Positions 26,465-52,382 of a DNA stretch of 64,000 nt are shown one piece after another (positions within the stretch are counted from its first letter, which is position 1; each line of letters opens with the position of its first letter). The notes beneath the pieces are model-generated. The model was not told the DNA's origin. It made no database searches and worked only from the letters and a program-made list of their open reading frames with translations. Position numbers and translations under genes: made by a program. The stretch is taken from contig JACPJW010000001.1 of assembly GCA_016187335.1 (NCBI GenBank), positions 4,547 through 68,546 on the forward strand. Direction: 5' to 3'. This DNA comes from Candidatus Aenigmatarchaeota archaeon. Its GTDB lineage: Archaea; Aenigmatarchaeota; Aenigmatarchaeia; GW2011-AR5.

Positions 26465-27048
26465 AGCACTTCCCCCTCGAACCTCAGCACTTCCGTATCG
26501 GGCCCTATCTTGTCGAGGAAATCATCAACTGACCTGTAAACTCCGTCAGGAAAGATGTGCACGGCCATGAAAAGGTATCTTCCCTTTTCCTTTGGCGCAA
26601 AGCCCGCCACGTTGGCCGTGTGGAAGTCCTCGCCAAGCAGGGATTCAGTGCCGCATGAAATCCTGTTCACTAAATAAGTTCCCTCGAAATGCTCGTGCTG
26701 CGCAAATCTCTGCGGATAATTCACTTTCTCGACAGGCCCCCTGACAACGCAGACGTAATAAGTGTCATAATTAGCAAGGCGCTTCAGGTTCGCCTGAACC
26801 GAAAACAGCTCGCCCGGCTTGAAGCTGCTGCCCTTAAGCTGAACGAAATTGCCGTCCAGACCGCAAACAACGTAATCGCGGCCGCTGGTCAGCAGTTCGC
26901 TGGTGCACTGGTCGATGAAGGCGAGGATTTTCGCTTCCGTCAGCGGCGCTGCAGCAACAGGAGCGGATGCAGCGGGCTGTTTGATAGAAAATACAGCCAC
27001 GGCGGCAACGGCGGCGAGCACAAGAACCAATGCAGCGCCTTGTTTCAT
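26461..27048 (-). CDS. Secreted hypothetical protein
   Basis: Signal peptide MKQGAALVLVLAAVAAVAV. Stop overlaps the start of 24074..26464 by 4 nt, so likely co-transcribed. Confidence 0.45.
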   Translation of the reverse strand: MKQGAALVLVLAAVAAVAVFSIKQPAASAPVAAAPLTEAKILAFIDQCTSELLTSGRDYVVCGLDGNFVQLKGSSFKPGELFSVQANLKRLANYDTYYVCVVRGPVEKVNYPQRFAQHEHFEGTYLVNRISCGTESLLGEDFHTANVAGFAPKEKGRYLFMAVHIFPDGVYRSVDDFLDKIGPDTEVLRFEGEVL

Positions 27049-27267
27049 AAAACAACAAACCTCTTTTAATCAAACTTTGAAAATCGAATGACGCATAAAG
27101 TGCGTCTGTCTGCCTCAAAGTTTGGTTTCATGCTTTATTATTACACAGGGCGGTATAAAAATTTGTTTTGCGCTGCCTGACAGCGAAGAAAGTGCGTAAT
27201 TCCCCTGTAAAGCGCTGCCAAAAACAGAAAATGCAACTTATTTTAATCCCGTTCGGGAATAGTTAAT

Positions 27268-27927
27268 ATGCCCTACGAAGTCGAAGGCATGAGCGAGCAT
27301 CCTACCAAAAGGGCGATAGAATTTGTGCTTTTCCTGATAATCGTTTCCGCCGCGCTGACGCTCTGGTTCAACGCCGAGGCGCAGAAGCAGGAAAACGCGC
27401 CGGTATTTCCTGCCACAGGCAACGATGAGATAAACAGGATCCTGGCCACGAAGAACAACAACCTCGGCAAGAACATGAACGAGATATGGATGAGCAACTG
27501 CCGCGTTCCGAAAGAGCGCTCGCTCGTCAACCTTGTGCACATCAGCAAAAAAAGCGGCGGTTATGAAATCAGCTGCGAGTTCGGGCCTTCCTATGATTAC
27601 GTGTCGTACAATGTCGGCGGTTCGACCCCTTCCGTTTACGCCGGCTGGATCGCGGACAGGAAATGCGACGGGGAAATCGCGGCGGAAATCGACAAGGCCG
27701 TGAGGGAAGTGAACAGCTGCCCCGTGCTGCTGAGGGAAAAAATACCCGACGACCTGGCGGATTACTACGTGGTCTCGCTTTACTGCAGGAGCAATTTCAA
27801 GAAGGAATACGTGATATCCACCCGGGATATTCCAAAATGCGTGGAGCCGCTTTTGTCAGGTAATGTCGTGATACCGATTTCATACGACAGCGTCGTTGAC
27901 GTCAGGACGGGGAGGGCTTGGATTTAG
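27268..27927 (+). CDS. Membrane-anchored hypothetical protein
   Basis: Single N-terminal TM then an extracytoplasmic domain. C-terminal ~50 aa are duplicated at 28620-28784. Confidence 0.45.
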   Translation: MPYEVEGMSEHPTKRAIEFVLFLIIVSAALTLWFNAEAQKQENAPVFPATGNDEINRILATKNNNLGKNMNEIWMSNCRVPKERSLVNLVHISKKSGGYEISCEFGPSYDYVSYNVGGSTPSVYAGWIADRKCDGEIAAEIDKAVREVNSCPVLLREKIPDDLADYYVVSLYCRSNFKKEYVISTRDIPKCVEPLLSGNVVIPISYDSVVDVRTGRAWI

Positions 27928-27965
27928 AGATTAAAGCATATAATACTGGAAATTGAAATAAAATT

Positions 27966-28418
27966 ATGCCAGTTTCAGGACAATTTCCAAAACACCATAT
28001 AGACACATCTGTAATTATAGAGCCTGAAAATACCGAAGACGGAAGGTTCTGTAAACGTTATCTACAAAAACTCAATTATAATTATACCGGTATTTTATCA
28101 TTTCCAGTATTAAGCGAGATTTTTGTTATTCTCAATTCTTTGGAGGATTTCAATGAAAGATACGATTTTATAGAACCTCTGCTGGCTATGGTTAAATCAA
28201 GAAATATAGAGTTCTACGCTCCGAAAGATATAGGAAATCTTCTTAACAGCATTAAATCAACTGAGAAAAGAATTGGTTTTGTAGACAGCGAAATAGTTGC
28301 CTGCGCAGCTGAAGATAAAGCTGATGCCTTGATAACCCTTGATAGAGATTTGATAAACAACAAGAACCTGGAAAAGTTATTGAGAATAAGGATACTTCAT
28401 CCTAAAGATTTGCTGTAA
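27966..28418 (+). CDS. PIN-domain ribonuclease (VapC-like), no adjacent antitoxin
   Basis: Acidic PIN residues (IDTSVII...AAEDKADALITLDRDL). AT-rich relative to flanks. Confidence 0.65.
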   Translation: MPVSGQFPKHHIDTSVIIEPENTEDGRFCKRYLQKLNYNYTGILSFPVLSEIFVILNSLEDFNERYDFIEPLLAMVKSRNIEFYAPKDIGNLLNSIKSTEKRIGFVDSEIVACAAEDKADALITLDRDLINNKNLEKLLRIRILHPKDLL

Positions 28419-28577
28419 TTTATTTGTTATACTTTTTGTGCAATGACTTGTGTATGGCTTTGGCTTTTTCAAATACGCCCTTCGCTTCCGCCTTTCTGCG
28501 CAACATTTCGGCTCTCTTTTCTTCGTCTGTCATAATAGCACTAACCATATATCAGGCCAGAGAATATTTAAGGCTTC

Positions 28578-28784
28578 TTGCAAAAACATCAGAACCCTCC
28601 GCCCGCATCCAGCGAGCGGTCGGACTACCAAGTTTTCACGCTTTACTGCAGAGATTTCAAGAAAGAGTACTTGTCCTTGCGCAGCGACATACCTCAGTGC
28701 GTCTCGAAGATATTTGACAACGTCATTGTGGATGTGACAGTTACGGACGTCGTTGACGTCAGGACGGGAAGGTTCTGGGTGTAG
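28578..28784 (+). pseudogene. Duplicated 3' fragment of gene 27268..27927
   Basis: Translation ...YCRDFKKEYLSLRSDIPQCV...VDVRTGRFWV parallels the C-terminus ...YCRSNFKKEYVISTRDIPKCV...VDVRTGRAWI of the upstream gene. Nucleotide similarity is visible from 27770-27927 versus 28620-28784. Confidence 0.55.
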
Positions 28785-28793
28785 ATAAAGACA

Positions 28794-29906
28794 CTAAGCC
28801 GCTCTGTAAAGATTAATGTATTTTCCTTCTTCGATTCCGGTGACAACAATGCTTCTTTCTGGAACAAGCAAGCCGTCGCTTCTTTCCGAAAAGCCAAAAA
28901 GCTGCTCTAAAAATCTTCCTGCCTCTTCTAGAAATTCTCTTCGGCCCTCCTGCCTGTACAAGTCGGGCCTGCAAGGGTTTTTGAAAGGCGGAAAATATCT
29001 TGGCTCTGCTCTGAATGTTTTCTGTTCAAGGAAATTCTTTAAATCTCGTTTTTTCGGATCTAAATCTATTTTTCCTTTTTTACCAGACAGATAGGCATGA
29101 GCCCATTCTACTGCCCTGACTACTCGCGGCGTATATACAGATTCAGAATCAAAGTCTTCTCCTTTCTTGAATGAGGGATCCGTTCCCAATTCAAGTTCAT
29201 TAACTCTTTCTTCCGTTTCTTTCGCAACATTCTCAAAATCTACGTTAGGATTACTGCCATCATAGATAACAATGTTCCCTTTATCATCCCTAACAAAAAG
29301 CAGGAAGGGATTTACAGTCCTGACGACGTTGTATCTTTTGTTAGGATAACCTTTGTCTGTCCATTTTTGGTATCTTCCTCCCCGAAACCACGTTGGTACG
29401 ATACAGCCGAAATGAAGAACGTAATCTCCTTTTCTTGTACCTGTATTGCCGCCTTCACCTAGTTGAGTTGTTGGGGAAACATTTTGACCTAAAAATACGT
29501 TCCATGAATTCAAGTGCTGGTAATCTGTAAGATGTCCTAAACCGTGGCCAACTGTTACACTTTTGATTGAACCAAAACGGGTTTTGTAAGATGGTGGATC
29601 ATCTCCCCGATAAACCACAATCCCATTTCCTGCCGCCATAACTGGCGTGTAAGGCGGGCGCTCCCTTACTTTAAAATCTACTCCTCCCGGATCTATACCT
29701 AAATGGTTTTCATAACCCCCGCCTTCTATTATTACCGGTTGTCCTGGAACACATGCAGCAGGAGAAGAATAAGCGGATGGATTTCCAATAGCCTTTATAT
29801 CGGCATAAGACGGTCTAACCCCAAGTAAAGTTATACCATCGCCGATACTGCCTGCGACCAAGATTTTGACAACTTCTCTGCGCGTATACGAAGGACCTGA
29901 ACTCAT
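28794..29906 (-). CDS. M23-family metallopeptidase (LytM-like), Tat/Sec-exported
   Basis: RREVVKILVAG twin-Arg-like signal. HLGIDPGG (HxxxD) ... GHGLGHLTDYQHL ... GNTGTRKGDYVLHFG M23 motifs. Confidence 0.7.
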   Translation of the reverse strand: MSSGPSYTRREVVKILVAGSIGDGITLLGVRPSYADIKAIGNPSAYSSPAACVPGQPVIIEGGGYENHLGIDPGGVDFKVRERPPYTPVMAAGNGIVVYRGDDPPSYKTRFGSIKSVTVGHGLGHLTDYQHLNSWNVFLGQNVSPTTQLGEGGNTGTRKGDYVLHFGCIVPTWFRGGRYQKWTDKGYPNKRYNVVRTVNPFLLFVRDDKGNIVIYDGSNPNVDFENVAKETEERVNELELGTDPSFKKGEDFDSESVYTPRVVRAVEWAHAYLSGKKGKIDLDPKKRDLKNFLEQKTFRAEPRYFPPFKNPCRPDLYRQEGRREFLEEAGRFLEQLFGFSERSDGLLVPERSIVVTGIEEGKYINLYRAA

Positions 29907-29976
29907 AGATAATATTTATTTTTCATTACATTTAAAGGTTTCGTTTTTAATTACTTAAAAGAAGTAACGTTTTAAA

Positions 29977-30627
29977 TTATGGTTCACCACCACTGGTAAG
30001 TTGCTCACCTGTGCCACCGCCGGTTCCGCCAGAATTAGTGCCCTTTCCTCCTCCGCCAGCTGGCCCGCTCCCGGTCTGTATTTGAGGATCTACATTCCCT
30101 CCTCCGCTTGGCCCCCCTTGCTCGCTCCCGCCCCCCGGGCACCCCGTAAACGTCACCGTGCATGACCTGCCGCGCTGCACCACTGGGCCTGTGTCCGTGC
30201 AGCCGGTGGAGTAGCCCCTAATGTCGGCTTCAGAACCTGATCTTACTAGCTGAGCACCCCACCCATTGTCCGTCTCGAATGCTTGGCAGTCGCCGCTGCC
30301 GCATTGCTGCATAGCATAAGCAGCGCTTGCGCACGTTCCTGCCCTGTCGCAGCCGCCTTGGTCTTTGAACGATTCATATCCTGTTTCTGTTATTTGTGAA
30401 CCTCCACCAAACGAGCTGACAACAGCATTAGCAACCGCGCTTATTGCATCAACAATAGCATCAAAAAAATCTCTTACTGCGTCCCAAAACCCGAATTTAA
30501 CAAATTTTTTCCCGGATAGGTCTTCCGTATTTGTATTAAAAAGGAAAGATGAAACTGCACCTATTGCGTATATGAAAGAAGTCATGACAAGCAATGCCAC
30601 GAGAGAGGCAAGAAACTCGTTTCTCAT
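29977..30627 (-). CDS. Secreted Gly-rich Cys-containing protein
   Basis: Signal/TM at the N-terminus. Eight Cys in the middle. C-terminal GGxGG low-complexity tail. Confidence 0.4.
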   Translation of the reverse strand: MRNEFLASLVALLVMTSFIYAIGAVSSFLFNTNTEDLSGKKFVKFGFWDAVRDFFDAIVDAISAVANAVVSSFGGGSQITETGYESFKDQGGCDRAGTCASAAYAMQQCGSGDCQAFETDNGWGAQLVRSGSEADIRGYSTGCTDTGPVVQRGRSCTVTFTGCPGGGSEQGGPSGGGNVDPQIQTGSGPAGGGGKGTNSGGTGGGTGEQLTSGGEP

Positions 30628-30690
30628 GGTAATAGTATGAATAAAGCCGCAATAAATAGTTTTTGAACTAACCTTTGAAAACTTTGGATT

Positions 30691-31827
30691 TTAATTTCTT
30701 CTGAAATCACTTTCATAAATTTGGTAATATTTACCTCTTTCAAGGGCATCCATAATTTCCCATATTGTTTTACCTAACCTTTCTGTTCTAAGCGACTCAA
30801 TAAAATTCCTGCCTGCTGGTGTATGAGCTTTACGACCTTGTGGCGGTATTCCTTTCCTTTCGGGTGCAAGAAAATACCATATGCTAAGATCGTAATTATT
30901 ACGGGTCCTAGGACTTAACCATATGTCTGTAGCATATCCAGCCACATCGTATCTTATTCCTTCTATTGTCACCCTCCATCTTCCTTTAGGTGGTGGATCA
31001 AATTTTATAATTTGTAAATTAGCTCTGTTTTCATCTATTGGCAGTCTAACTCCTTCTAATCCCTTGATTCTACTCACATCAATTGTAGCGTAAATATTCA
31101 AATTTGGTGGATCGGCAGGGTCGTATTTGTTTTTAATCACTCTTATCAATAATTCGCCTTGGCCTATTGCCCTCAAAGAAAGCGGTTTCAGTTTCCCTGA
31201 ACCTGGAAAATAAACATCGTATCCTTTGCATGTGGCTGCAATTTCGCCCTTTCTTACGCCTTCTAAATAAGGTTCAGCAAAACCAGAAAATTTCAATGCT
31301 TGCGGGTTTCTGCGCAAAAGTTCACTAAGTTTAGAAAAGTCCCATCTTTCCGGTGTTGTTGAGCAAGGGAAAATAGGTGCCTCTTCCTGCGGTGTCGGTT
31401 GAGTCGTTACAGGCTGCTGCCCGTCTGCCGGCTGCTGGTCCTGTGCCGCTCCGGGCGGCGCTGGAGGAGGCGCATCCGTGCTCTGGCTTGCGCTAATATT
31501 CGGTGCGTAAGAAAGCGCTCCAAGCAATGCGATCGCTGTAAGTTCTGTTGCAAGCCGGGTTCTTTGGTTATATCCTCTTTTCATTACGCTTGCTTCCACA
31601 TTTTCCGGGTCCACAACATTCTGCTGCACATACCTTAAAGCGACATCACGCTGCTTTAACAGGTATTGTCCTGTCGCACTGGCACGATTCATTGCGGCAC
31701 TAAATTGGTCTCGTGCATAGCCTCGTGCGGCATTCCAGTAGCTTGCCAATGAACGACTTCCAGAAGTAACCCTGCCCATTATTTCTGTCCTTTGCTGCTG
31801 CTCCGTCGGCCTTAATACTATTCCCAT
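30691..31827 (-). CDS. Membrane-anchored protein with Pro-rich linker (paralog family 3)
   Basis: Cytoplasmic N-terminal domain, TM (LATELTAIALLGALSYAPNI), linker DAPPPAPPGAAQDQQPADGQQPVTTQPTPQEE, then a ~220 aa C-terminal domain. ~120 nt are near-identical to the paralog 31863..32987. Confidence 0.55.
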   Translation of the reverse strand: MGIVLRPTEQQQRTEIMGRVTSGSRSLASYWNAARGYARDQFSAAMNRASATGQYLLKQRDVALRYVQQNVVDPENVEASVMKRGYNQRTRLATELTAIALLGALSYAPNISASQSTDAPPPAPPGAAQDQQPADGQQPVTTQPTPQEEAPIFPCSTTPERWDFSKLSELLRRNPQALKFSGFAEPYLEGVRKGEIAATCKGYDVYFPGSGKLKPLSLRAIGQGELLIRVIKNKYDPADPPNLNIYATIDVSRIKGLEGVRLPIDENRANLQIIKFDPPPKGRWRVTIEGIRYDVAGYATDIWLSPRTRNNYDLSIWYFLAPERKGIPPQGRKAHTPAGRNFIESLRTERLGKTIWEIMDALERGKYYQIYESDFRRN

Positions 31828-31862
31828 CTTTTCAATGTTCATCTTATTTAGTTTTTTGTTAA

Positions 31863-32987
31863 TTAATGTTTAAATTCGTCAGAATGACGACCATAGTAAT
31901 TGCCTTTATTCATTTTATCTATAACTTCCCACATAATATCTCCAAATATTCTTGATTTATCAATATTTTTAAAATTCCTGCCAGCCGGTGTGTAGCCCTT
32001 GAACCCTTGCACGGGTGGTATCATTCCGGATTTAAAATACAATATACCAAAATCAAATTTGTTGGATGTTTTGGGGTTGAGCCACACATCTATTCCAAAT
32101 TCGGTTATATCGTATCTTATTCCTCCGAATGTTATTGGCCACCTTCCTTGAACAGATGGATCATATTTGTATACTCTTAAGTTAGGTCTATTTTCATTTA
32201 TTGGAAAGTTTATTTGCTCTAAGCCTCTAATTCCTTTTACAGTTATTACGAAATCAGTATTCAAATTCGTAGGGGCATCTGGGTAGTACTTATTTCCAAT
32301 GACATTCATCAACAATTCCCCATCGGGCCCAATAGCTCTGAGTGGGAAAGGCTTTTGCCCTCTTCTCAGGAAAGAAATATCATAACCTATGCACGTTGCT
32401 GTAGTTTCTCCTGATTCAACAGCTTTTACATAAGGCGCGGCATGACTGGAAAATTTCAGTACTCTCTGTCTTCTTGGACCTAAAAATAATTCTTTGAATT
32501 TAGGGTTGCTCGCATTCCATGTTTCTCCTGATTTGGCGCAAGGGAAAATAGTTCCTTCTTCCTGCGGTGCCGGTTGAGTCGTTACAGGCTGCTGCCCGTC
32601 TGCCGGAGGCTGGTCCTGCCCCGCTCCCGGTGGTGCAGGCGGCGGCGCATCCGTGCCCTGGCTTGCGCTAATATTCGGTGCGTAAAGCATTAGACCGGCT
32701 AAACCTGTGGCAAGCGCTCCGGCGCGTCTTTTTTGTGATGGTCTGTTCCGCAGTACGTCTCCTTCAACTTGAGCTGCCAGCTTCAATCCCGATAAATAAT
32801 CAGAAACAGCTTTGCTTTGCCTTCCGGCGTATTTTGAAAAAGTGTCCGCTTTATCTAAGGCATAAGTTCCAGCAGTTCTGGCTTGGCTTGACAAGTAACC
32901 TCTCACTGCGCCTAAGTAACCTCTTGGATTTCCGCTGACGATTTCTGCCCTGACCTGCTCTTCTGGCATTCGTATACTTATTCCCAT
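31863..32987 (-). CDS. Membrane-anchored protein with Pro-rich linker (paralog family 3)
   Basis: Same architecture and same linker sequence as 30691..31827. Confidence 0.55.
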   Translation of the reverse strand: MGISIRMPEEQVRAEIVSGNPRGYLGAVRGYLSSQARTAGTYALDKADTFSKYAGRQSKAVSDYLSGLKLAAQVEGDVLRNRPSQKRRAGALATGLAGLMLYAPNISASQGTDAPPPAPPGAGQDQPPADGQQPVTTQPAPQEEGTIFPCAKSGETWNASNPKFKELFLGPRRQRVLKFSSHAAPYVKAVESGETTATCIGYDISFLRRGQKPFPLRAIGPDGELLMNVIGNKYYPDAPTNLNTDFVITVKGIRGLEQINFPINENRPNLRVYKYDPSVQGRWPITFGGIRYDITEFGIDVWLNPKTSNKFDFGILYFKSGMIPPVQGFKGYTPAGRNFKNIDKSRIFGDIMWEVIDKMNKGNYYGRHSDEFKH

Positions 32988-33097
32988 CTCTACCCTCTCT
33001 TAACCACTCTTAAGTGACAAGTATAAATATATCCGCGGCGGTATATAAAGTTTCCGCCTGGACCCTGTTTATATAGGGCTTGAAAGGATTAAAGGGT

Positions 33098-33469
33098 TTA
33101 GACCTTCAGCGGAATTACTGGGATGCCCAGTTTCCCGTATTTCCTGTCAGAGCTTATTATGGGCTGGCCTTCTGCCAGGACGGCGTTGAAGGCGTCAAAA
33201 ACGCCCAGATTGTTATTCTTTATGTGATTTACAATTTCCATGCCCTGCTTTATCGTCATTCCTTTTATGTCAGCTATCTGGAAAATGGAAGCGACGATAT
33301 TTTCCATGTCCAAATTCTCCCTTTTCGCGACAAGTAGGAGTCCGGCCAGCGTAAGGACAGAAGTTTCTATACTGCCTTTGTATTCCTCGTAAATCTTCTT
33401 GGCGCCCGTCTTCAGCCAGTCTTCCTTTTTTATCATGGCGAGAAAAAAATCCGTGTCCGCGTAAACCAT
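33098..33469 (-). CDS. vapC: PIN-domain toxin VapC
   Basis: MVYADTDFFLA N-terminal PIN signature. 123 aa. Confidence 0.7.
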   Translation of the reverse strand: MVYADTDFFLAMIKKEDWLKTGAKKIYEEYKGSIETSVLTLAGLLLVAKRENLDMENIVASIFQIADIKGMTIKQGMEIVNHIKNNNLGVFDAFNAVLAEGQPIISSDRKYGKLGIPVIPLKV

Positions 33470-33470
33470 G

Positions 33471-33719
33471 CTATCTTCCTGCCTCTTTCAGCGCTTCCTC
33501 GTACGCCTCCTTTCGGAGCTGCTTTATCGTCTTGCCCTTTAGCTTTTCCCCTTCCTTCTGCAGTGTTTTTACCGGGTCCTTTGGCAGCGGCTTCAGCAGT
33601 ATCCCTTCTTTTTTGATTGGGATTACAACAAATTCGTCGGTTCCGAATTCTTCAACAACATCCCTGCTTAATGTAATTCTCCTTCTTTCGTCCATTCTTG
33701 TTTTTGTCATGCTTTTCAC
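33471..33719 (-). CDS. vapB: AbrB/SpoVT-type antitoxin VapB
   Basis: RRITLSRDVVEEFG swapped-hairpin motif. Stop abuts the vapC start. Confidence 0.65.
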   Translation of the reverse strand: MKSMTKTRMDERRRITLSRDVVEEFGTDEFVVIPIKKEGILLKPLPKDPVKTLQKEGEKLKGKTIKQLRKEAYEEALKEAGR

Positions 33720-33869
33720 CCACGTATATTCAATATGTGGGTAAATATTTAAATTTATGGGTAATTTAAACTATAACCCATTATTGAACTTTTCTCAGAA
33801 ATCACATCACAATCACACAAGCTCACGCTTATATACCGCCCACGACAAAAATTTATCTGAGGTGGATAC

Positions 33870-34154
33870 ATGCCGTTATTGAGCGTACATAACATGGATT
33901 TGCTCCTTGTGCTGTTCGCGGTCCTCTATTTGGGAAGGGCAGCGCTGTTCAGGGATAAGGTGCCGAACGGGTTCAAGTGGCTCGCGGCCGGAGGCCTGGT
34001 TATACTCGTGCCTGTGGGCCTGTCAGCTGTGAACTGGACACTGCTGGGAATGCTCGAGGTGTTCCGCACGGTCGACACGTGGCTGAGCCTGCTTGGAGGA
34101 CTTCTTATCCTGGCCGGTTCCGTCAAGACCCTGATGGAGCTCTTCAGCAAGTGA
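33870..34154 (+). CDS. Small membrane protein, hypothetical
   Basis: 94 aa with three predicted TM helices. Confidence 0.35.
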   Translation: MPLLSVHNMDLLLVLFAVLYLGRAALFRDKVPNGFKWLAAGGLVILVPVGLSAVNWTLLGMLEVFRTVDTWLSLLGGLLILAGSVKTLMELFSK

Positions 34155-34249
34155 CCCTTTTCACGAGTAAACGCGAAAAAGCGTCAACGGAAAAGTATAT
34201 GGCCCGGACAGAATTGAGAACGCTGACAGTTTTTTGCTTTTCTTTTTTC

Positions 34250-34272
34250 AATAAATATCTGCGGGCTAAAGC
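34250..34272 (+). promoter_or_regulatory. Conserved upstream motif AATAAATATCTGCGGG(C/A)TAAAGC
   Basis: Same 23-nt motif recurs at 40347-40369. Both copies sit ~20-45 nt upstream of +-strand start codons (34317 and 40390). Confidence 0.35.
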
Positions 34273-34316
34273 CCGAATGAGACAGGAAGCTGAGCATTCG
34301 CTTCCGCTTGTAGATA

Positions 34317-34958
34317 ATGATTTTTATGCCTAAAAGAAAACCGAAGCGGGCAGTGAAAAAGAAAAGCCCCCTTTACGTTATCCTTGTTCTAGGCGTCATC
34401 GCGCTGTTCGCTGTTGTGTATTCGTACCGCGGCGCTGCGCTGGTGAATGCCAGCGCGGACGACGATCCTTCGCTGGGCAGTGAAAACGCCCCTGTCACGA
34501 TGATAATGTTCAGCAATTACGCCTGTTCGTTCAGCAGGGACTTCTGGCAGGACACCTTCCCGCTTCTGAAGCAGCAGTATATAGACACGGGCAAAATCAG
34601 GTTCGTTTTCAGGGATTTCCCCGTTCAGACGCCAGGCGTCATTGATTCCTCGCTCGCTGCGGAGTGCGCCGACGACCAGGGGAAATTCTGGGAATACAAC
34701 AATGCGCTTGTCAATTCCGTCCGCATCGACAAGGACAGCCTGAAAGAATACGCTTCTGATCTTGGCCTGGATACGGAACAATTCAACAGCTGCCTCGATT
34801 CGCAGCAGCGTCTGGCAGAAGTCAGGAAGGACTTCAGCAACGGCGTTTCCTACGGCGTCCGCGGCACGCCCACGTTCTTCATCAACGGCCTGCGCGTCGA
34901 GGGCGGCGAGAGCTTTTCGTTCTTCGCGCAGCTGATTGAGAAGGAATTGGCGAAGTAA
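34317..34958 (+). CDS. DsbA-family thioredoxin-fold protein with CxxS active-site variant
   Basis: N-terminal TM. MIMFSNYACSFSRDF (C-S-F-S in place of CxxC). C-terminal RGTPTFFINGLRVEGG. Confidence 0.65.
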   Translation: MIFMPKRKPKRAVKKKSPLYVILVLGVIALFAVVYSYRGAALVNASADDDPSLGSENAPVTMIMFSNYACSFSRDFWQDTFPLLKQQYIDTGKIRFVFRDFPVQTPGVIDSSLAAECADDQGKFWEYNNALVNSVRIDKDSLKEYASDLGLDTEQFNSCLDSQQRLAEVRKDFSNGVSYGVRGTPTFFINGLRVEGGESFSFFAQLIEKELAK

Positions 34959-34998
34959 ATGGCTGATTTTCTCTAGACGGCCCTCATCGTTAATGCAG

Positions 34999-35625
34999 TT
35001 ACCTGATTTCTCTCAGTATTTTTTCCTTGAGCATCTTTATTTTCCTGGCGTCTTCTATTCCCAGGTAGCTGAACTCGCTTCTTGCGCCCCGGACTATTTC
35101 TTTCAGCCTTCTGGGATAATTTTCCATGCCGTATTTTTCCGCGGTGGCAATATAATTTTTCAGGCTTATTCCGGAATTCAGCAGCAGGTTAAGTATATCA
35201 ACCCTGTCCTTCTGCCCTTTTATGGAGTCTTTTCTTGCAAGCTCGGCCTGCTGTTTCAGGATCAGCAGTATTTCAGGCTTCGGCACCTTGAATCCTTCTA
35301 TTCTTATTGTATTCTTTTTCACCGCTTCTGCGGGAATAATAAACTTCGAATAAAACGGCACGTATATGTCCACGGATATTTCGTTTATTTTCGTTTCGTA
35401 TTTTTTCAGGAAATCCGTTTTCTTAATCCCGTGCGCCAGCTTAAGCTTTTCCAATCCTTCAAAGTCGACTATTATGTCGATGTCCTTGGACTTTATTGCC
35501 TTTGTGTGCAGGTAAACTGCCCAGCCTCCTATCAGGATGAAATCTATCTCCTTTGCCAGCGATATCAGAACGTCCCAGCTCCTGTCAACTATAAGGTCAT
35601 CCCAGAACTCGCTTGATGTGCTCAT
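34999..35625 (-). CDS. Nucleotidyltransferase (AbiEii/minimal NTase-like)
   Basis: LIGGWAVYLH...SKDIDIIVD nucleotidyltransferase motif. Confidence 0.5.
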   Translation of the reverse strand: MSTSSEFWDDLIVDRSWDVLISLAKEIDFILIGGWAVYLHTKAIKSKDIDIIVDFEGLEKLKLAHGIKKTDFLKKYETKINEISVDIYVPFYSKFIIPAEAVKKNTIRIEGFKVPKPEILLILKQQAELARKDSIKGQKDRVDILNLLLNSGISLKNYIATAEKYGMENYPRRLKEIVRGARSEFSYLGIEDARKIKMLKEKILREIR

Positions 35626-36184
35626 CTATCTTCGCCTCCAATGCCTTCAGGAATTCCTGCGCGTACCATGTGTTTATGTTCCAGAGATCAGCGAAAAGCT
35701 GGGCCATCGGCACGGATTTGAATTTCCTCAGGTGCTCATCCATTCTAAGGACGATGACATTCGGCTTCCCTTTTTTCAACGGGAACCTTTCAGCAATGTG
35801 CTCGTCGCCGTAGACGTAAACCTCGCCGTAATCAGACGGCACTGAACGGAAAAGCATCTTGTAGCCGGAATACGCTGTAAATACCACCTCAGGCATGCTT
35901 TTCTCTATCTCTTCAACAGGCGCATCAGAATGCGTTTGGTAAACAACATCCCTTTGCAGCTTCCTGACCGAGGCCCAGTAAAGCAGCATCTTCTTTGCAT
36001 CCAGTACCCTGAAGCCCATGTGCTTTTTTTCTATGGCGCCCATGCTTTCCAGCGGCTTCAGTGCGTGGTTAACGCTGCCTATTGATATGCCGCATTCCTC
36101 AGCAAGCTTTTTCTGGCTGAAGAAATTCTTCTTCTTTTCCAGCAACTGGAATAAAATCTCGCGATAAACCCGCTCAATTTTCAT
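35597..36184 (-). CDS. Winged-HTH transcriptional regulator (AbiEi-like partner)
   Basis: N-terminal HTH (LAEECGISIGSVNHALKPL). Overlaps the start of the downstream NTase gene. Confidence 0.5.
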   Translation of the reverse strand: MKIERVYREILFQLLEKKKNFFSQKKLAEECGISIGSVNHALKPLESMGAIEKKHMGFRVLDAKKMLLYWASVRKLQRDVVYQTHSDAPVEEIEKSMPEVVFTAYSGYKMLFRSVPSDYGEVYVYGDEHIAERFPLKKGKPNVIVLRMDEHLRKFKSVPMAQLFADLWNINTWYAQEFLKALEAKIDEHIKRVLG

Positions 36185-42248: not shown

Positions 42249-42470
42249 CTATTTCTTCGCCTTCACGAGAAAATAATACAGAATCGCCCCGATGACGTTA
42301 AGGAAAAGCAGGACAAGGACCCATATCAGGCGCTCGTTGCCGCCCTTGTTCGGGAAATTCCTGTCTTTTCTTGTCAGGCAGTCAACAAGCATCCACAGCC
42401 AGAAAACTACGGCTAAAACTATCAGGATCATGAATACCGCCATCGCGCCGAACATCCAGGCAAAGACCAT
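42249..42470 (-). CDS. Small membrane protein
   Basis: 73 aa with two TM helices. Confidence 0.35.
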   Translation of the reverse strand: MVFAWMFGAMAVFMILIVLAVVFWLWMLVDCLTRKDRNFPNKGGNERLIWVLVLLFLNVIGAILYYFLVKAKK

Positions 42471-42601
42471 TCAAATCTAAACTCATTTGATGCAGCAGGA
42501 ATATAAAAAGATTCGAACAGGCGAAACTGATAGAAAAAATCAACAAAAAATGTCATTATAGATTATTGGTTCCTCAAATGACAGAATTTTTAAAATAGAC
42601 A

Positions 42602-44005
42602 CTAAATGAATATTGAATATGTCGTCAAAGCTACATTATCATTTCCGTTTTTTGCCCAAAGTACAACAGTATAGACTCCACTCCCCTTAGAAAGAAGCGG
42701 TTGAATATTCGCTGTAATTGCAAAGCTTCCTCCGTTTACGTGCCATCTTGATGCCTCAACGTATTTGTAATTCATACTTGAAGTGTCATAATAAGAGCCT
42801 AGAGGTGGTGGTGCCAAAATATATCCTGCTTCATCTCCAAGACTATAAGCACCTCTATAAAAATAACTTAGCAAATCGCTCTGAGTAAGCCGCACAGGAG
42901 TCAGGTCATAATAGAGTGCAACATTCTGTATTGTTCCTAAAGACGATGTGCCTTCCATACTAAGAATTCCAGAACTGTAACTTATTGGTTCTGACCACAA
43001 AATGTAATCATCCTCGAAATCCTGCACATATGCAAGATGCGTGCTGTCATAAGCGATTCCTATGTTGACTTTATTATGATTTTTATCAAGAATGTTATCT
43101 CTATGTCCCCAATTTGAGTCCGCATCATCATTTACCATTTGATATTCATGAGTTTCGATACTTTCTTTCGGATCTATTGTTACGGCATTAGGTTCATAAT
43201 AAAAGAAACCAGAAAACGCAGCATTTTCGGCTATAGACCCTTTGCCTCCTGCCTTTGTATATCGCATATATGGTTTAGACCCGTCGCTCCCCCAATGAGA
43301 AAGAAATCGGTTTTCAATCATATCTTCTGCATGTTGTTGGGCTGCGTTATTATTGCCTAATGCTACGGGCTTAAGCCCATTTTGTGTTCTATCCTCGTTA
43401 ATCAATTGTAATGCATAATTGCGCAATTCCTGAAGTGTATACTGCTTTGGTTGTGCAAACCTTGTTTCTACCGTCGGTCTATAAACTTGTCTACTAAAAT
43501 TAAGTGTTATTTTGTTAGTGTCGTTAAAAGAAATGTTGGGCAAATAACTCGATACTTTGCTCCAATTAGTGTAAATCAGAAACCCAGCTACTATCAGAAC
43601 GATAATAAAAACCACAGTTCTTGACACTTTTATTTCGTCTTTTTTTGCACGTTCATATGGTATCGGAATACCATCTTTGAAAACAACAGACGGCTCTTCG
43701 TGATGCTTGATTGGCTTCGACTTTACAAACTTATCTAAGGCCTCTTTATATTGTTGCAGTTTTCGTTTGTTTTCTTCTTCCCAATGCTCCAAATAAGGTG
43801 GACAAGGATGTCCTCCAGGCTTATGCCATTCTTCCATAAAAAGTCTGTCTTTCTGAGTAGAACCTTCAAATCTAGGAAGGCCAGCCGGCTTTGGCCTGAT
43901 ATGCACATTGCAGAAATACTTTTGGCAATACCGACATTTTTTGAAGAATTTGTTACCCATGTCGCATAAATGGTAATTGCATTCTATCCTCCGATTTTTA
44001 ACCAT
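42602..44005 (-). CDS. Membrane protein: N-terminal AN1-like zinc finger, TM, extracellular CAP/SCP-like domain
   Basis: Cys/His cluster CNYHLC..CRYCQKYFCNVH..H..HPC. One TM. LSHWGSDGSKPYMRY...GENAA CAP-domain-like block. AT-rich gene. Confidence 0.5.
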   Translation of the reverse strand: MVKNRRIECNYHLCDMGNKFFKKCRYCQKYFCNVHIRPKPAGLPRFEGSTQKDRLFMEEWHKPGGHPCPPYLEHWEEENKRKLQQYKEALDKFVKSKPIKHHEEPSVVFKDGIPIPYERAKKDEIKVSRTVVFIIVLIVAGFLIYTNWSKVSSYLPNISFNDTNKITLNFSRQVYRPTVETRFAQPKQYTLQELRNYALQLINEDRTQNGLKPVALGNNNAAQQHAEDMIENRFLSHWGSDGSKPYMRYTKAGGKGSIAENAAFSGFFYYEPNAVTIDPKESIETHEYQMVNDDADSNWGHRDNILDKNHNKVNIGIAYDSTHLAYVQDFEDDYILWSEPISYSSGILSMEGTSSLGTIQNVALYYDLTPVRLTQSDLLSYFYRGAYSLGDEAGYILAPPPLGSYYDTSSMNYKYVEASRWHVNGGSFAITANIQPLLSKGSGVYTVVLWAKNGNDNVALTTYSIFI

Positions 44006-44063
44006 CTAGTCACTAAAAAACTTTAGTTTGGTTCTTTAAAAAATCTCCTTTTTTATATAATTT

Positions 44064-44297
44064 ATGAAAAAGAACGGACTAAGGAATAGACACAAAATTA
44101 AAATAAAGTCAAAAGTTAGAAAAACAAAACCTAAATTTAGCTACGATATTCTTGTCGATAAGTTCATTTATTCTGATTTTAACAGTAGTGAAATGCCGCT
44201 TGAGTTGGAAATTATGAAATTTATGGAAGTGAATAGAATTCCAGAGAAACATTTTGAGATATTATTTTCAAAGGTAAATAGAAAATTTTATGGATGA
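44064..44297 (+). CDS. Hypothetical small protein (AT-rich)
   Basis: ORF only. Confidence 0.2.
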   Translation: MKKNGLRNRHKIKIKSKVRKTKPKFSYDILVDKFIYSDFNSSEMPLELEIMKFMEVNRIPEKHFEILFSKVNRKFYG

Positions 44298-44345
44298 CAG
44301 TTTATTGTAATAAAAAATAGTCTTTATTCCTTTAAAGATAATTAA

Positions 44346-44582
44346 TTACTCATACGGTTCTCCGGATGGTGTTACCCAAGTTTTTAGTTTTCCACATCTT
44401 CGACATCTTGAATGGTGATCAACAACATGGGAAGCACCGTGAAAAATTGATGTTGATGGTCCATAATCATGAAGTCCTAATTTACATTTTAAGGATCTTC
44501 CAAAATCAATTTTATAATATCCACGTATTAAAGCATAGGGGAAAGTAATAATTCTAAGTATCCATTTTATTATCCGATTCAT
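44346..44582 (-). CDS. Hypothetical small protein
   Basis: 78 aa ORF with C-terminal C..C/H..H pattern. Confidence 0.3.
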   Translation of the reverse strand: MNRIIKWILRIITFPYALIRGYYKIDFGRSLKCKLGLHDYGPSTSIFHGASHVVDHHSRCRRCGKLKTWVTPSGEPYE

Positions 44583-44637
44583 TTGATCATCTTAATATTC
44601 TCAGATTTCAAGTGTTTGCACCTACCCTTTTTATATG

Positions 44638-44793
44638 CGAGGGGCCGGATTCGAACCGACGAAGGCACTAAGCCACTAGGTATCTCACATGAGACCAGAT
44701 GGCTCCATGGCCTGAACATAGCCTCAGGACCTAAGCTTGGCTTACAGCTGTTACCTGATCTAGCCCCTTTGTCCACTCGGGAACCCTCGCTTA
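44638..44793 (-). tRNA. Long intron-containing tRNA, class II-like (probably Leu)
   Basis: Minus strand: 5' GCGAGGG...T-arm GTCGG-TTCGAAT-CCGGC-CCCTCGC-A. D-arm TTCCCGAGTGGACAAAGGG is class II-like. A variable-arm hairpin is present. CTTAGG/CTGAGG candidate anticodon loops both read Leu. ~65 extra nt imply one or more introns. Confidence 0.55.
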
Positions 44794-45414
44794 AGGCTTT
44801 TGAATTATTGCAACAATATCCATCGGGAACAATTTAAACGCTTTATGGCTGCTGTCAAAGACTCTTAGAACTTTAAAGCCGCTTTCTTCCAGAAGCTTTC
44901 TTAGCTCCTTTCTTGAGAAGAAGTAATAGTAACGATGATACTCATTATCTCCTATTTTCCACCGCACGAAATCCTCCTTCCTTTTGAAATTAAGCCTTGG
45001 CTGGTTCTTGTTCCAGACGCTTATTATTGCTGACGATCCGGGCTTCATTACCCTCCACATTTCCATTACGGATTTCTTTCTTGGTTCTTCTCCCTCAATC
45101 TGGTGGATAACATTTGCCGCGACAACAGCGTCGAAAACATTATCCTTGAACGGCATCGCATCTGCACGCGCGACGGCAAAAAAGGCTTTTATTTTTTCCT
45201 TAGAGGCTTTTTCCTTAGCAAGTTTGATCATTTTCTCTGCAAAATCAAAACCCACATATTTTTTCCCTTTGATCATGTGTCTGCCAGATCCACATCCTAA
45301 ATCAAGAATCAAGCCTTCTGAATTAGAGATGAAATCCACTATATCTTTATGGGGCTTTGTCCTCAAGCGATGCCATTCCGGAGCAATAGAATTCCATACT
45401 TCCCTTTGTTTCAT
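44791..45414 (-). CDS. Class I SAM-dependent methyltransferase
   Basis: LDLGCGSGRH motif I and DAVVAANVIHQ motif. Confidence 0.75.
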   Translation of the reverse strand: MKQREVWNSIAPEWHRLRTKPHKDIVDFISNSEGLILDLGCGSGRHMIKGKKYVGFDFAEKMIKLAKEKASKEKIKAFFAVARADAMPFKDNVFDAVVAANVIHQIEGEEPRKKSVMEMWRVMKPGSSAIISVWNKNQPRLNFKRKEDFVRWKIGDNEYHRYYYFFSRKELRKLLEESGFKVLRVFDSSHKAFKLFPMDIVAIIQKP

Positions 45415-45476
45415 GGTAATAATCAGAAAAAAGCCCTTTTAAAATATAGTTTGTAATTTGTTACAGTCTTCAAATT

Positions 45477-45723
45477 GCTCCCGTAGTCTAGCCCGGCAAA
45501 GGAGAAACTGCGTTTCTCCCTTTACCCTCTTCCTTTCTGAAAAAGAAGGGAATGAGGTTACAAGGAGAGAACCGTAGGTTCTTCTCCTGTTAGGATATCG
45601 GCCTCTCAGCACCCTTTCTTTTGAAAAAGAAAGTGTGCACGGAAAGAAAACTTCAGAAAAGCGTGAACGGAAAGAATGGGTGGAAGTTCGCCGAAGACGC
45701 GGGTTCAAATCCCGCCGGGAGCA
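45477..45723 (+). tRNA. Very long tRNA-like gene with probable multiple introns (anticodon unresolved)
   Basis: 5' GCTCCCG-TA-GTCTAGCCCGG... and 3' ...GCGGG-TTCAAAT-CCCGC-CGGGAGC-A give a perfectly paired acceptor and T-arm ~247 nt apart. Interior contains palindromic hairpins (CTTTCTTTTGAAAAAGAAAG). Confidence 0.5.
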
Positions 45724-45791
45724 TAGAATTATCGGGATATATATAGCAACGGAAAAATTGAACGCTGACGTATATCCTGAAGAATATAGAA

Positions 45792-47252
45792 TTATGGTGA
45801 CTGACAGTCAAATGTAATATTCATAAAAACTTGTGAGTTTATAGGCATAGACAATTGTGTAAAGGTGAATCCATTGTTGTCGTTATTTGAAAATGAGTTC
45901 CTCGTAGAAGCCCAGAATATTCTCCTACTTGTTTCTATATCACAATAATTTGAATTTGTGCAAGTTGAAAGTCTAACATCTTCAATAATCGTTGCGTTAC
46001 TAAATTTACCAGTCACATTAGTAATTGAGCATAACCTTCCTATGTTCTGGAAAGCTTGAAGAAAGACTTCTTGAATTACAAGATCTTTTGGAAGGTTGTT
46101 TGTAATATTAACTTCAAAATAAGATACGTTGTAGATTTTTCTAACGTCTGTTTTTGGGATTTTGATTTTATCAATATTTCCTTGATCCAATACAAATCCA
46201 GTGAGATTTATCGACCTAAAAGAGAAGTTTGACCCAGTCAAAACAATTACGTTAGAATTATTGTAGTATATTACTTCCTTAAGTCCAATCTTATTGAATT
46301 CGTCATACTTTTGTTTTAAAGAAATTGGGTATGTTCTATATGTTTCATTAACATTCAATATTACTCCAAAATAATTTTGATATGCATAATTGAAATCCAG
46401 ATCATTAACAGTATAGTTTCCAATTTCAAACGGTACCCATCCATAAAACCCTTCATTTTCTATTTCAAATTGTTGAGATTTGTGTTTGTAAAGAACTGCA
46501 TTATTGAAACTTTCAAAACTACTAACAGAAGTACCATTACCGTCCAAGTAATAGAAATCAGTACTTTCTGAAATGAAATGTGTCTGTGGCATAGAGGAAT
46601 AACTTATTAAAGTAAAAATTATCAAAGACGCGATAAGAAAACTAATCAAAAATTTCCTTTCGAATGGCTTTAGAGTTACAACGGGTAGTTCATATTTGAT
46701 CTTATTGTTCTTATACAAAGTCAAACATACCAACGATAAAATTACTAATGAAAATGATGTTTGAAGAAGAATAATAGAAAATATTCCATATGCCGAAAAT
46801 ATTGCTGTTGCGCTATTCAGAAGAATTACGCAGGACAAAATGAAGAAAGCAATAATACCCATTTCTAAAGCTAGAAATGAATTTTCACGCTCTTTTTTTG
46901 AAAATACTCCACCCCATACAAAAACAATACTTAGAAGTAAGATAAAACTTATTATGTAATTCAAACTATCAATAATATTTTTATTATATAGGAAAATATT
47001 GTTCGAATAAACTAAAAATCCACCTATAACAATGTAAAGTGTAATGTATACAATTAGCCCAAGTCCTCCTGAAAGAATTAACTTATCAACATCGCTCAAT
47101 CCAAATCTAAATTTTTTTGATTTGAAATCGTAAGTTGATGCAAAAATTAACGAATATCCAAGAAATAAGACCAATACTTTAACGAGCGTATTAGCACCGA
47201 AATAATCAAAGGCTGCATTTACAGCGTCTGCAATTCCAAGTGGGTCTGCCAT
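45792..47252 (-). CDS. Polytopic membrane protein with large C-terminal extracytoplasmic domain (AT-rich)
   Basis: ~8 N-terminal TM helices then a ~250 aa Asn/Ile-rich domain. No family recognised. Confidence 0.45.
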   Translation of the reverse strand: MADPLGIADAVNAAFDYFGANTLVKVLVLFLGYSLIFASTYDFKSKKFRFGLSDVDKLILSGGLGLIVYITLYIVIGGFLVYSNNIFLYNKNIIDSLNYIISFILLLSIVFVWGGVFSKKERENSFLALEMGIIAFFILSCVILLNSATAIFSAYGIFSIILLQTSFSLVILSLVCLTLYKNNKIKYELPVVTLKPFERKFLISFLIASLIIFTLISYSSMPQTHFISESTDFYYLDGNGTSVSSFESFNNAVLYKHKSQQFEIENEGFYGWVPFEIGNYTVNDLDFNYAYQNYFGVILNVNETYRTYPISLKQKYDEFNKIGLKEVIYYNNSNVIVLTGSNFSFRSINLTGFVLDQGNIDKIKIPKTDVRKIYNVSYFEVNITNNLPKDLVIQEVFLQAFQNIGRLCSITNVTGKFSNATIIEDVRLSTCTNSNYCDIETSRRIFWASTRNSFSNNDNNGFTFTQLSMPINSQVFMNITFDCQSP

Positions 47253-47398
47253 AATTCACATACTTCAGTGAATTATTAAACAGTCTAATTACGGACTTTT
47301 TCGGACCCTTCAACTTCTCCACTTTTCCCTGCCTTTCGCGGGAGCATTTTTCACGCCCTTCTGAACGCTATTAATTCGTTCCTGTCCTATTCTTCATG

Positions 47399-47992
47399 AT
47401 GAGGGAGTTCATAATGCGCGCGAGGAAGGCGCACACGAAGCCTGACGTGAACCTTAACGAGCTGCCGCAGCAGGGGAAGATGGACTCGGTCTGCGCGGCG
47501 ATAGCAGGCGCGCTGTGGATATCAGGCGACGTGAGGAGGGACACGGCCATCCATGTCGTGCTGGAGGGTCCCGGCAACGCGCCGAAGACCATAAGCTTCT
47601 ACGGCTCCGAGATAAGGGGCCTGCGCCACGATGAAAGATCTATGGCTTCGTACATTGCCGACGCGCTGAAGAAGGGCGCGTGGCTGGAACTGAACGAAGA
47701 GGCAAAGGTCAGGACGGGGATAAGGGTCGCCAAGAAAAGTTTTGAAAGGCTGGTTTGGGAAAAGAAAGGAAAGAAGATGTTCGTCCTCGACAAGGACGGC
47801 AGGGACATAAGGGACGCCGAGATTCCCGCGGATTGCGTCATAATCTTCGGCTCCGCGGAGGGCCTGCCGGCAAAAACAGAAAAGCTCTTTCGCGACCTCA
47901 GGGCGGAAAAAATAAGCCTCGGGCCGACGATGCTCTTTGCCGCCCACTGCCCGGTGATCGTTAACAACGAGATGGACAGGAGAAAGCCCTGA
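47399..47992 (+). CDS. trmY: tRNA (pseudouridine54-N1)-methyltransferase TrmY (SPOUT, DUF358)
   Basis: MREFI..., RRD, ISLGP..LFAAHC match archaeal TrmY almost residue-for-residue at conserved positions. Confidence 0.85.
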   Translation: MREFIMRARKAHTKPDVNLNELPQQGKMDSVCAAIAGALWISGDVRRDTAIHVVLEGPGNAPKTISFYGSEIRGLRHDERSMASYIADALKKGAWLELNEEAKVRTGIRVAKKSFERLVWEKKGKKMFVLDKDGRDIRDAEIPADCVIIFGSAEGLPAKTEKLFRDLRAEKISLGPTMLFAAHCPVIVNNEMDRRKP

Positions 47993-52184: not shown

Positions 52185-52185
52185 A

Positions 52186-52230
52186 TGAGCCCGATGGGAT
52201 TCGAACCCACGACCTTCTTGGACCTATTCT
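52186..52230 (-). other. Orphan tRNA 3' fragment (T-arm + acceptor 3' strand) or highly non-canonical tRNA
   Basis: Minus strand GGTCGTGGG-TTCGAAT-CCCAT-CGGGCTC-A is a clean T-arm and 3' acceptor. No matching 5' acceptor strand could be found within 100 nt. Confidence 0.4.
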
Positions 52231-52287
52231 TACATCACTGCAAAAACAGTCGGTCCGAAGCCGGACGCTCTATTTGCCACAACTTTT

Positions 52288-52317
52288 CGTTTTGATGCAA
52301 CTTTTCTGAAAAGTTGC
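52288..52317. repeat. Copy of the cgttttgatgcAACTTTTCTGAAAAGTTg element
   Basis: Near-identical over ~30 nt to 3852-3882 and 6567-6596. Palindrome spans 52298-52316. Confidence 0.7.
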
Positions 52318-52382
52318 CCTGGCTAAGCTACGGGCCCAGCAGCATAATGATGTATGTTAGAACAAGCGCTTATAAATTATAT

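Follow-up and report, generated by a model that had tools for sequence, protein, structure and literature searches.

The systems that come closest to the locus described here are archaeal elements of the pNOB8 and SSV type, which are integrated at tRNA genes (Reiter 1989; She 2004; as treated in PMC3293823), the dark-matter or flexible islands of archaeal genomes (Makarova, Wolf and Koonin, PMC6393860), and the multi-intron tRNA genes of Thermoproteales, M. kandleri and DPANN archaea (Kaneta et al. 2018, PMC5829648; Yoshihisa 2014, PMC4090602). Many disrupted tRNA genes have been reported in DPANN lineages (PMC5829648), in agreement with the results below. We analyzed a 64-kb stretch of the genome of a Candidatus Aenigmatarchaeota archaeon (contig JACPJW010000001.1, positions 4,547 to 68,546; hereafter, the window), in which an AT-rich region at 42.5-47.3 kb contains two long tRNA genes, tRNA-Leu(UAG) and tRNA-Glu(CUC), on either side of a methyltransferase gene, MT207. 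A preliminary description of the region, based on its sequence, proposed a horizontally acquired island at tRNA loci. Our analysis supports, with moderate confidence, a different arrangement: integrase-less accessory cargo at a tRNA-linked hotspot, in which a resident cassette of the two tRNAs and MT207 is bordered by two lineage-specific AT-rich blocks and not embedded in one island. Thus, the foreign-like, tRNA-linked genes of the proposal were retained, but a single island surrounding the tRNAs was not, because the blocks lie outside the resident cassette.

The backbone gene order is lysK - DUF763 - PLDc_N - [tRNA-Leu <- MT207 / tRNA-Glu ->] - trmY - ZIP - nikR. The left block (approximately 2.1 kb: CAP467, orf77 and orf78) begins at the 3' end of tRNA-Leu (44636), and the right block (approximately 1.6 kb: mem486) begins at the 3' end of tRNA-Glu (45723). 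The mean GC content of the window was 47.3% (1-kb windows: mean 0.474, SD 0.054). In contrast, GC was 0.41 or less in all 1-kb windows of 42501-47000, the lowest 1-kb value of the whole window (0.285) was detected at 46001-47000, and 42.5-47.3 kb was its most AT-rich stretch. The GC content at third codon positions (GC3) of the block genes was 0.17-0.32, compared with 0.649+-0.058 in the reference high-GC3 (core) gene class (n = 33), corresponding to z values of -5.7 to -8.3. The AT-richness reported earlier was therefore borne out by sliding GC as well as by GC3. The GC3 of the other polytopic membrane proteins of the window was 0.65-0.69, and the low GC of the block genes sits at synonymous positions, so that it is not an effect of amino-acid or membrane-protein composition. 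The composition steps at the PLDc_N and trmY edges were sharp and fell within intergenic spacers, outside the flanking genes.

The Karlin dinucleotide distance delta* was 63 between the left and right blocks and 39 between the two flanks, compared with 117-164 between blocks and flanks (117-134 for the left block). Codon usage of CAP467 was correlated with that of mem486 (r = 0.76), and both were anti-correlated with the core genes (about -0.25). The same codon usage was common to all low-GC genes of the window (r = 0.66-0.84); thus the likeness between the left and right blocks is not specific to them. GC3 was below 0.45 in 16 of the 55 window genes of at least 100 aa, among which the flagged region forms the largest block. 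Because such genes also occur outside this region, the genome is a mosaic. Further, a related locus, L094 (LysK 57% identical), was collinear with the core genes of the window (8.9 kb to lysK) but lacked 16619-21632 and 22647-36184, indicating a conserved backbone with inserted accessory stretches, and the low-GC3 genes of the window are those absent from L094.

When orthologous loci of relatives were compared (45-82% protein identity, mostly short contigs), the contents of the positions occupied by the blocks differed. In L111, PLDc_N (76% identical) begins 75 bp past tRNA-Leu and CAP467, orf77 and orf78 are absent, so that the site of the left block is empty there. On the 3' side of tRNA-Glu, the L111 locus carries genes for a GNAT and a Big_7 surface protein, and L109 has a flavin reductase gene with small open reading frames (ORFs) followed by ZIP-nikR. 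In L112, an intact tyrosine integrase gene (L112:6279-7595, minus strand; PF00589, E=2e-19) lies on the same strand as tRNA-Glu, 57 bp 3' of it. Beyond this integrase (L112:2001-6000), dark-matter genes with 23-34% GC were found, including one for a Laminin_G_3 protein, compared with 42-49% GC in the backbone. No attR was detected within the 16.6 kb of L112 examined, and repeat searches there yielded nothing beyond chance. L100 keeps lysK-DUF763 (79-82%) and diverges afterwards, and L107 keeps the trmY-ZIP-endoIII synteny with a different side upstream of trmY; in both, synteny stops at the block edges. The flagged genes are thus lineage-specific additions beside the tRNAs, as had been suggested. 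Two results had been named that would speak against an island, namely a uniform base composition and the presence of these genes at the orthologous position in relatives; we examined both and found neither.

The cassette itself, tRNA-Glu(-)/MT207(+)/tRNA-Leu(+), was found again in L111 and L109, where the T-arms of the tRNAs are identical and the acceptor stems nearly so, and also in L112, where tRNA-Glu was parsed by hand; L103 holds lysK, tRNA-Leu and MT207 together. Homologues of MT207 were found across DPANN (221 sequences, with identities graded from 75 to 40%), and in relatives the composition of MT207 equals that of its own backbone. These comparisons indicate that the tRNA-Leu/MT207/tRNA-Glu cassette is a conserved, old resident of the locus. 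The gene list of the preliminary description was incomplete in this respect, in that the methyltransferase gene at 44791-45414 between the tRNAs was not listed. Judged by its sequence, MT207 is assigned only to the generic class I S-adenosylmethionine (SAM)-dependent methyltransferase fold; when it was compared with NCBIfam equivalogs (UbiE/MenG, TRM9 etc.), the best match was TIGR01934 at 62 bits, below the cut-off of 158. In L103, a more distant relative, a putative two-gene toxin-antitoxin-like pair (L103:2666-3156; RelE/ParE-like by eye) lies between tRNA-Leu and the MT207 homologue, and would represent a further small insertion of accessory genes beside this tRNA.

The two long tRNAs proposed earlier are real genes with two introns each, the splicing of which is predicted. 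Default ARAGORN and Rfam gathering scans detected no tRNAs across the window, and at relaxed thresholds Rfam recognized only the T-arm of tRNA-Glu. We relied on models built from a bulge-helix-bulge (BHB) scan combined with cloverleaf reasoning, which were spliced in silico and refolded in ARAGORN. The spliced tRNAs gave clean cloverleaves of 74 nt for Glu(ctc) and 84 nt for Leu(tag). In three of the four introns, three or four of the four base pairs of helix H lined up with the splice sites that we chose, and the flanking helices were often short. The D-loop intron of tRNA-Glu matched only the relaxed BHB motif, with a splice site that is ambiguous by +/-1 nt. When a single long intron was forced, ARAGORN called the two loci wrongly as His and Met, and these calls were dropped after multi-intron modelling. 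Similarly, an alternative model of tRNA-Leu (stem CTAGA/TCTGG) was rejected, as it required a third intron and gave no fold. Most of the 93-nt D-loop intron (45503-45582) forms a long near-perfect hairpin, which produced spurious weak Rfam matches to miRNA precursors.

We found two more intron-bearing tRNAs in the window, at 13496-13620 (plus strand) and 52185-52338 (minus strand), which default ARAGORN and Rfam also missed. All four tRNA genes of the window thus contain introns, indicating that intron-rich tRNAs are a genome-wide trait and not, as had been assumed, a feature of an island. The orthologue of the tRNA at 13496-13620 in L094 (L094:3369-3512) has a different intron complement. For the two cassette tRNAs, we compared orthologues at L103:2395-2605, L109:3343-3496 and 4180-4263, L111:2125-2211 and 2940-3139, and L112:7652-7810. 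The exons of tRNA-Leu were 100% identical to those of L111, and the differences between the two genes were indels, all within the predicted introns. Both intron positions recur in the tRNA-Leu of L103, which has a third intron and, in the anticodon stem, a compensatory change. The tRNA-Glu of L111 lacks the 37/38 intron, and the predicted junction is contiguous there, while that of L112 lacks the D-loop intron. Among the tRNA-Leu genes compared, the number of introns ranged from zero to three with nearly identical exons; the tRNA-Glu orthologues, likewise with nearly identical exons, carried a D-loop, 37/38 or T-loop intron in varying combinations.

Table 1. Coordinates in the window of the features at and around the tRNA-Leu/MT207/tRNA-Glu cassette
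Feature	Position	Strand	Description
PLDc_N small membrane protein	42249..42470	-	Left backbone flank; Pfam PLDc_N; GC3 0.70, core-like
Left AT-rich accessory block	42471..44635	.	Directly 3' of tRNA-Leu; GC 0.29-0.40
9-bp direct repeat TCATTTGAT	42483..42491, second copy 44579-44587	+	Brackets left block; weak hint only
CAP467, 467 aa	42602..44005	-	AN1-like finger / transmembrane helix / CAP / Ig-like; GC3 0.32
orf77, small basic hypothetical protein	44064..44297	+	Gene call in Logan assemblies; GC3 0.28
orf78, possible small protein	44346..44582	-	C...H/CxxC zinc-ribbon-like motif; uncertain gene; GC3 0.17
tRNA-Leu(UAG), 155 nt	44636..44790	-	Predicted introns 30/31 (44737-44759, 23 nt) and 37/38 (44682-44729, 48 nt); resident
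MT207, class I SAM-dependent methyltransferase	44791..45414	-	Pfam Methyltransf_11/25 E~1e-18; between the tRNAs
tRNA-Glu(CUC), 247 nt	45477..45723	+	Predicted introns at D-loop/D-stem junction (45500-45592, 93 nt) and 37/38 (45609-45688, 80 nt); resident
Right AT-rich accessory block	45724..47395	.	Directly 3' of tRNA-Glu; GC 0.28-0.32
mem486, 486 aa	45792..47252	-	Seven transmembrane helices aa 7-220, beta-rich ectodomain aa 223-483; GC3 0.25; orphan family
trmY	47396..47992	+	Right backbone flank; Pfam PF04013 E=2e-50; GC3 0.77, core-like

The cargo of the two blocks is predicted to encode cell-envelope proteins, CAP467 and mem486. From the N- to the C-terminus, CAP467 comprises an AN1-like zinc finger (aa ~9-68), a transmembrane helix (aa ~128-148), a CAP/SCP domain (aa 199-330) and finally an Ig-like beta-sandwich (aa ~335-467). 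Its predicted topology is single-pass with the N-terminus inside, so that the AN1-like finger is cytoplasmic and the CAP and Ig-like domains are extracellular. The CAP domain (PF00188) was detected over the full profile at 41.7 bits, compared with the Pfam cut-off of 21.1 (E=2.5e-10). Further, Foldseek matched the CAP467 model to the CAP folds of GAPR-1 (4aiw), PR-1 (9lyt) and BB0689 (4d53, TMt 0.72) with a probability of 1.00 and to the CAP domain of PrgA (6z9k) with a probability of 0.98; the Ig-like beta-sandwich follows the CAP domain in the model. Three residues, H225, E260 and H301, do not vary across the aligned family and are candidate members of the conserved His/Glu tetrad of the active site.

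The zinc finger was less evident, as zf-AN1 (PF01428) matched aa 9-38 below threshold (13 bits versus a cut-off of 27.9, E=0.12). When the N-terminus was compared with the AN1 ligand pattern C-x2-C-x9-12-C-x1-2-C-x4-C-x2-H-x5-H-x-C, the first six ligands were found to be present (C9, C14, C24, C27, C32 and H35, with a first spacing of x4), and the terminal H-x-C was shifted by approximately 25 residues to H66-P-C68. Across the aligned family, these six ligands vary little if at all, and a canonical AN1 finger is the usual form, which supports the assignment of the CAP467 N-terminus as a divergent AN1-like finger. The AN1-like/transmembrane/CAP architecture recognized in the preliminary description is thus real. 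Its supposed rarity in archaea was not confirmed: we found 424 homologues of CAP467, the nearest 57% identical, and PF01428 and PF00188 occur together in about a quarter of the top 120. The sources of the homologues include several archaeal phyla, with Aenigmarchaeota, Hecatellaceae, Nitrosocaldus and Nitrosopumilaceae among those named, and some Chloroflexota.

In mem486, all 11 N-glycosylation sequons and four invariant Cys residues lie in the ectodomain, which is accordingly predicted to be disulfide-bonded and N-glycosylated. Only five relatives (24-37% identical) were found among 1.84 billion representatives. The AlphaFold2 model of mem486 had a pLDDT (predicted local distance difference test) of 72, and a fold search of it against the PDB gave no meaningful match, only spurious beta-sandwich matches with a TM-score of 0.29 or less. 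The interval 44064-44582, previously treated as one gene, consists of two small ORFs on opposite strands, orf77 and orf78, neither of which had significant family matches; orf77 had no match in Pfam, PHROG or NCBIfam. For orf78, there is no gene call in Logan assemblies and the PHROG matches were weak (E=4e-4), and it may not be a real gene.

Relatives of both envelope proteins were found close together at another locus. L113 encodes a WLM-like HExxH protein (L113:3305-4426, minus strand) with a CAP467-type extended AN1 module, 43% identical over 95 aa (PF01428 E=1e-3), and a mem486-family gene (L113:8001-9473, plus strand) lies approximately 4 kb from it, with Laminin_G_3 and LemA genes in between; L114 is arranged alike. 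An AN1-module gene and a mem486-family gene may therefore form a recurrent gene neighbourhood. The surroundings of mem486 and AN1-CAP relatives are likewise dark matter, in which genes for Laminin_G_3, LemA and Ig-repeat proteins occur. The motif likeness between orf78 and the C-terminal part of the L113 protein (E=0.006) was too weak and was set aside.

How might the blocks have come to their present positions? We infer that they arrived with integrase-bearing elements that subsequently decayed. The blocks would have been transferred horizontally out of a gene pool of lower GC, probably that of DPANN archaea, the likeliest route being tyrosine-integrase elements that target tRNA 3' ends, with later loss of the integrase and att repeats. 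Accessory DNA would thus have built up directly 3' of each outward-facing tRNA end of the divergent cassette, and the blocks may be maintained because this archaeon, which depends on a host, carries them as variable cargo for surface proteins. Several results weigh against this history. Neither PF00589 nor any other recombinase was detected in the blocks or the other window ORFs scanned, and when the L112 integrase was searched with tblastn over the whole window, only chance matches (E of at least 1.7) and no integrase remnant were obtained, in agreement with the earlier statement that no integrase is present. No other mobile-element hallmark was detected in the window, the PHROG matches being only weak or generic, and no tRNA-derived direct repeat was found in it (seed 10; blastn-short word 7). 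The only bracketing repeats were of 9 bp and 8 bp and not derived from tRNA, lengths that were reached in 3.5% and 7.7% of shuffles, respectively; the 9-bp repeat is the longest word common to both junction windows of the left block (69 of 2000 shuffles). Neither the CAP467 nor the mem486 family was found on IMG/VR viral contigs, and no donor was found, the nearest homologues being 57% (CAP467) and 37% (mem486) identical. Both flanks were joined in none of the comparison loci, whose divergence and mostly short contigs were described above. Finally, MT207 has an intermediate GC3 (0.44, z = -3.6), and its relative synonymous codon usage (RSCU) correlates better with the low-GC class (r = 0.55) than with the core (r = 0.11), in better agreement with one en-bloc event; in L113/L114, a mem486 relative lies 4 kb from an AN1 module resembling that of CAP467, which speaks against the blocks being unrelated insertions.

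Because of these last two results, we kept as the principal rival a single event, unlikely although not negligible, in which the whole of 42.5-47.3 kb including the cassette replaced the resident version by homologous recombination through the conserved flanks or the cassette. The donor would have been a lower-GC Aenigmarchaeote that already had CAP467 and mem486 beside its tRNAs, a history close to the one-island view of the preliminary description. Such a replacement would account for the composition of MT207, which is backbone-like in relatives, for GC remaining continuously at 0.42 or less over 42.5 to 47.2 kb, for the dinucleotide signature shared by the two blocks and for the neighbourhood in L113/L114. 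However, codon usage like that of the blocks is shared by the low-GC class window-wide, and MT207 is not the only backbone gene with a GC3 between the two classes. MT207 of L109 is 58% identical, in line with ZIP (64%) and nikR (52%) of that locus, as predicted by vertical descent. Further, homologous crossovers would be expected inside the flanking genes, but the composition steps lie in the intergenic spacers.

Differential loss of ancestral genes appears improbable. CAP467 and mem486 would then be old residents of the locus, AT-rich through low expression, relaxed selection or membrane-protein composition. The failure to find an integrase, an att site or a donor is as expected from such a history, as are the diversity and age of both families and the low-GC3 class comprising about a quarter of the window genes. 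However, GC3 is largely independent of amino acids and was 0.25-0.32 here versus 0.65-0.69 in other polytopic membrane proteins, the low-GC3 genes are those missing from the collinear L094, and relatives show differing contents 3' of tRNA-Glu and one clean empty site at tRNA-Leu (L111). Mis-joining of AT-rich segments to the backbone at conserved tRNA sequences during assembly or binning can be practically dismissed, because, although several short same-population assemblies end inside tRNA-Leu (44659-44675) or tRNA-Glu (45608), three assemblies made independently from separate runs (L001, L002 and L003) cross both blocks, the tRNAs and the flanks at 100% identity and the contig of this metagenome-assembled genome (MAG) is 918 kb long.

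The reading of two blocks beside a resident cassette can be carried further, although we regard the extension as doubtful. The cassette could be a lineage-wide recombination hotspot of Aenigmarchaeota at which surface cargo is swapped repeatedly, with an AN1 module and mem486 transferred together. The introns may either disrupt att sites or have been delivered by the elements themselves; introns brought by integrative elements have been proposed for Caldiarchaeum (PMC3293823). An AN1-type module together with mem486 could serve as an envelope module for symbiont-host contact or surface exclusion. If such a hotspot existed, the rapid gain, loss and resizing of introns in these tRNA genes would be traces left by an arms race with integrases that target tRNAs.

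Some further observations concern the assemblies and neighbouring loci. The Logan contigs that matched exactly all represent one population and are uninformative on presence or absence of the blocks. Same-population contigs, 100% identical save one 47-nt indel, were found in several runs of one Sequence Read Archive (SRA) series, and proteins identical to those of the window, CAP467 included, are listed in NCBI under a Candidatus Aenigmarchaeota MAG. The 47 extra nt are present at 41028/41029, in the spacer close to where DUF763 has its 3' end, in all longer same-population Logan assemblies crossing this point; the difference changes gene calls (104-aa and 55-aa ORFs) and reflects an indel or else a mistake in the assembly of the MAG. 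The ends within the two tRNAs mentioned above belong to four independent short assemblies, and could reflect tRNA sequence shared by co-occurring genomes or strain-level variation. The two stretches absent from L094 encode large Pfam-less proteins (891, 737 and 796 aa), an M23 peptidase, a DUF2268 protease and a PIN-domain gene product, and include tandem Pfam-less ORFs of similar size at 30691-31842 and 31863-32987. In L106 (L106:4737-12978; TrmY 74% identical), trmY is followed by genes for a Vsr endonuclease, a helicase, PLDc_2 and a DNA methylase, resembling a defence-type island at the trmY boundary. In a DUF763-based search of genome contigs, the best among the matches listed were approximately 53% identical and shared no synteny. 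L100 and L111 showed no nucleotide overlap, and their origin from one genome fragment is speculative only.

AT-rich accessory genes beside tRNAs are expected and fairly ordinary biology; the added value of this locus lies in its hidden multi-intron tRNAs and its conserved, hotspot-like cassette. As default tRNA finders missed four of four tRNA genes in 64 kb, inferences of an 'island at tRNA' or a 'missing tRNA' in such DPANN MAGs need intron-aware analysis. Further, the relatives provide a natural experiment, in which one cassette occurs with an empty site, with different cargo or with an intact integrase, and with tRNA introns of varying number, position and length, and this comparison could serve to test whether tRNA introns affect mobile-element integration. 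Two envelope families of host-dependent archaea also deserve note, the widespread AN1-transmembrane-CAP proteins and the very sparse mem486 family with seven transmembrane helices and a predicted glycosylated ectodomain.

The locus resembles pNOB8-/SSV-type elements in that atypical AT-rich DNA lies directly 3' of tRNAs and is sporadically present among relatives, and the L112 integrase, on the same strand and directly 3' of the orthologous tRNA-Glu, is a pNOB8-type border (PMC3293823). In contrast to these elements, the window contains no integrase, tRNA-derived repeat, or plasmid or viral genes, its cargo is merely 1.6-2.1 kb per side, and both tRNAs of one cassette are occupied. With archaeal dark-matter islands (PMC6393860), it shares contiguous uncharacterized and compositionally distinct genes that are rich in membrane or secreted proteins and variable between relatives; here, however, the islets are very small, lie precisely at tRNA 3' ends and contain no defence or toxin genes. 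Like the bacterial and eukaryotic members of the CAP/SCP/PR-1 superfamily (YkwD, BB0689 of Borrelia, PrgA of enterococci and GAPR-1), CAP467 has an ectodomain that exceeds the Pfam threshold and a model that superposes, but differs in its AN1-like finger, linked through a transmembrane helix, and its family-specific Ig-like domain.

The tRNAs show no fundamental difference from described multi-intron tRNAs (PMC5829648, PMC4090602). BHB-type introns, here predicted ones, occur at 37/38 and at non-canonical positions (D-loop, 30/31 and T-loop) in both, standard predictors miss both, and tRNA-Glu of M. kandleri likewise has a D-loop intron plus the canonical one. What is new is the documentation, from predicted introns, of intron gain, loss and size turnover among orthologous tRNA-Leu and tRNA-Glu genes of Aenigmarchaeota at one locus.

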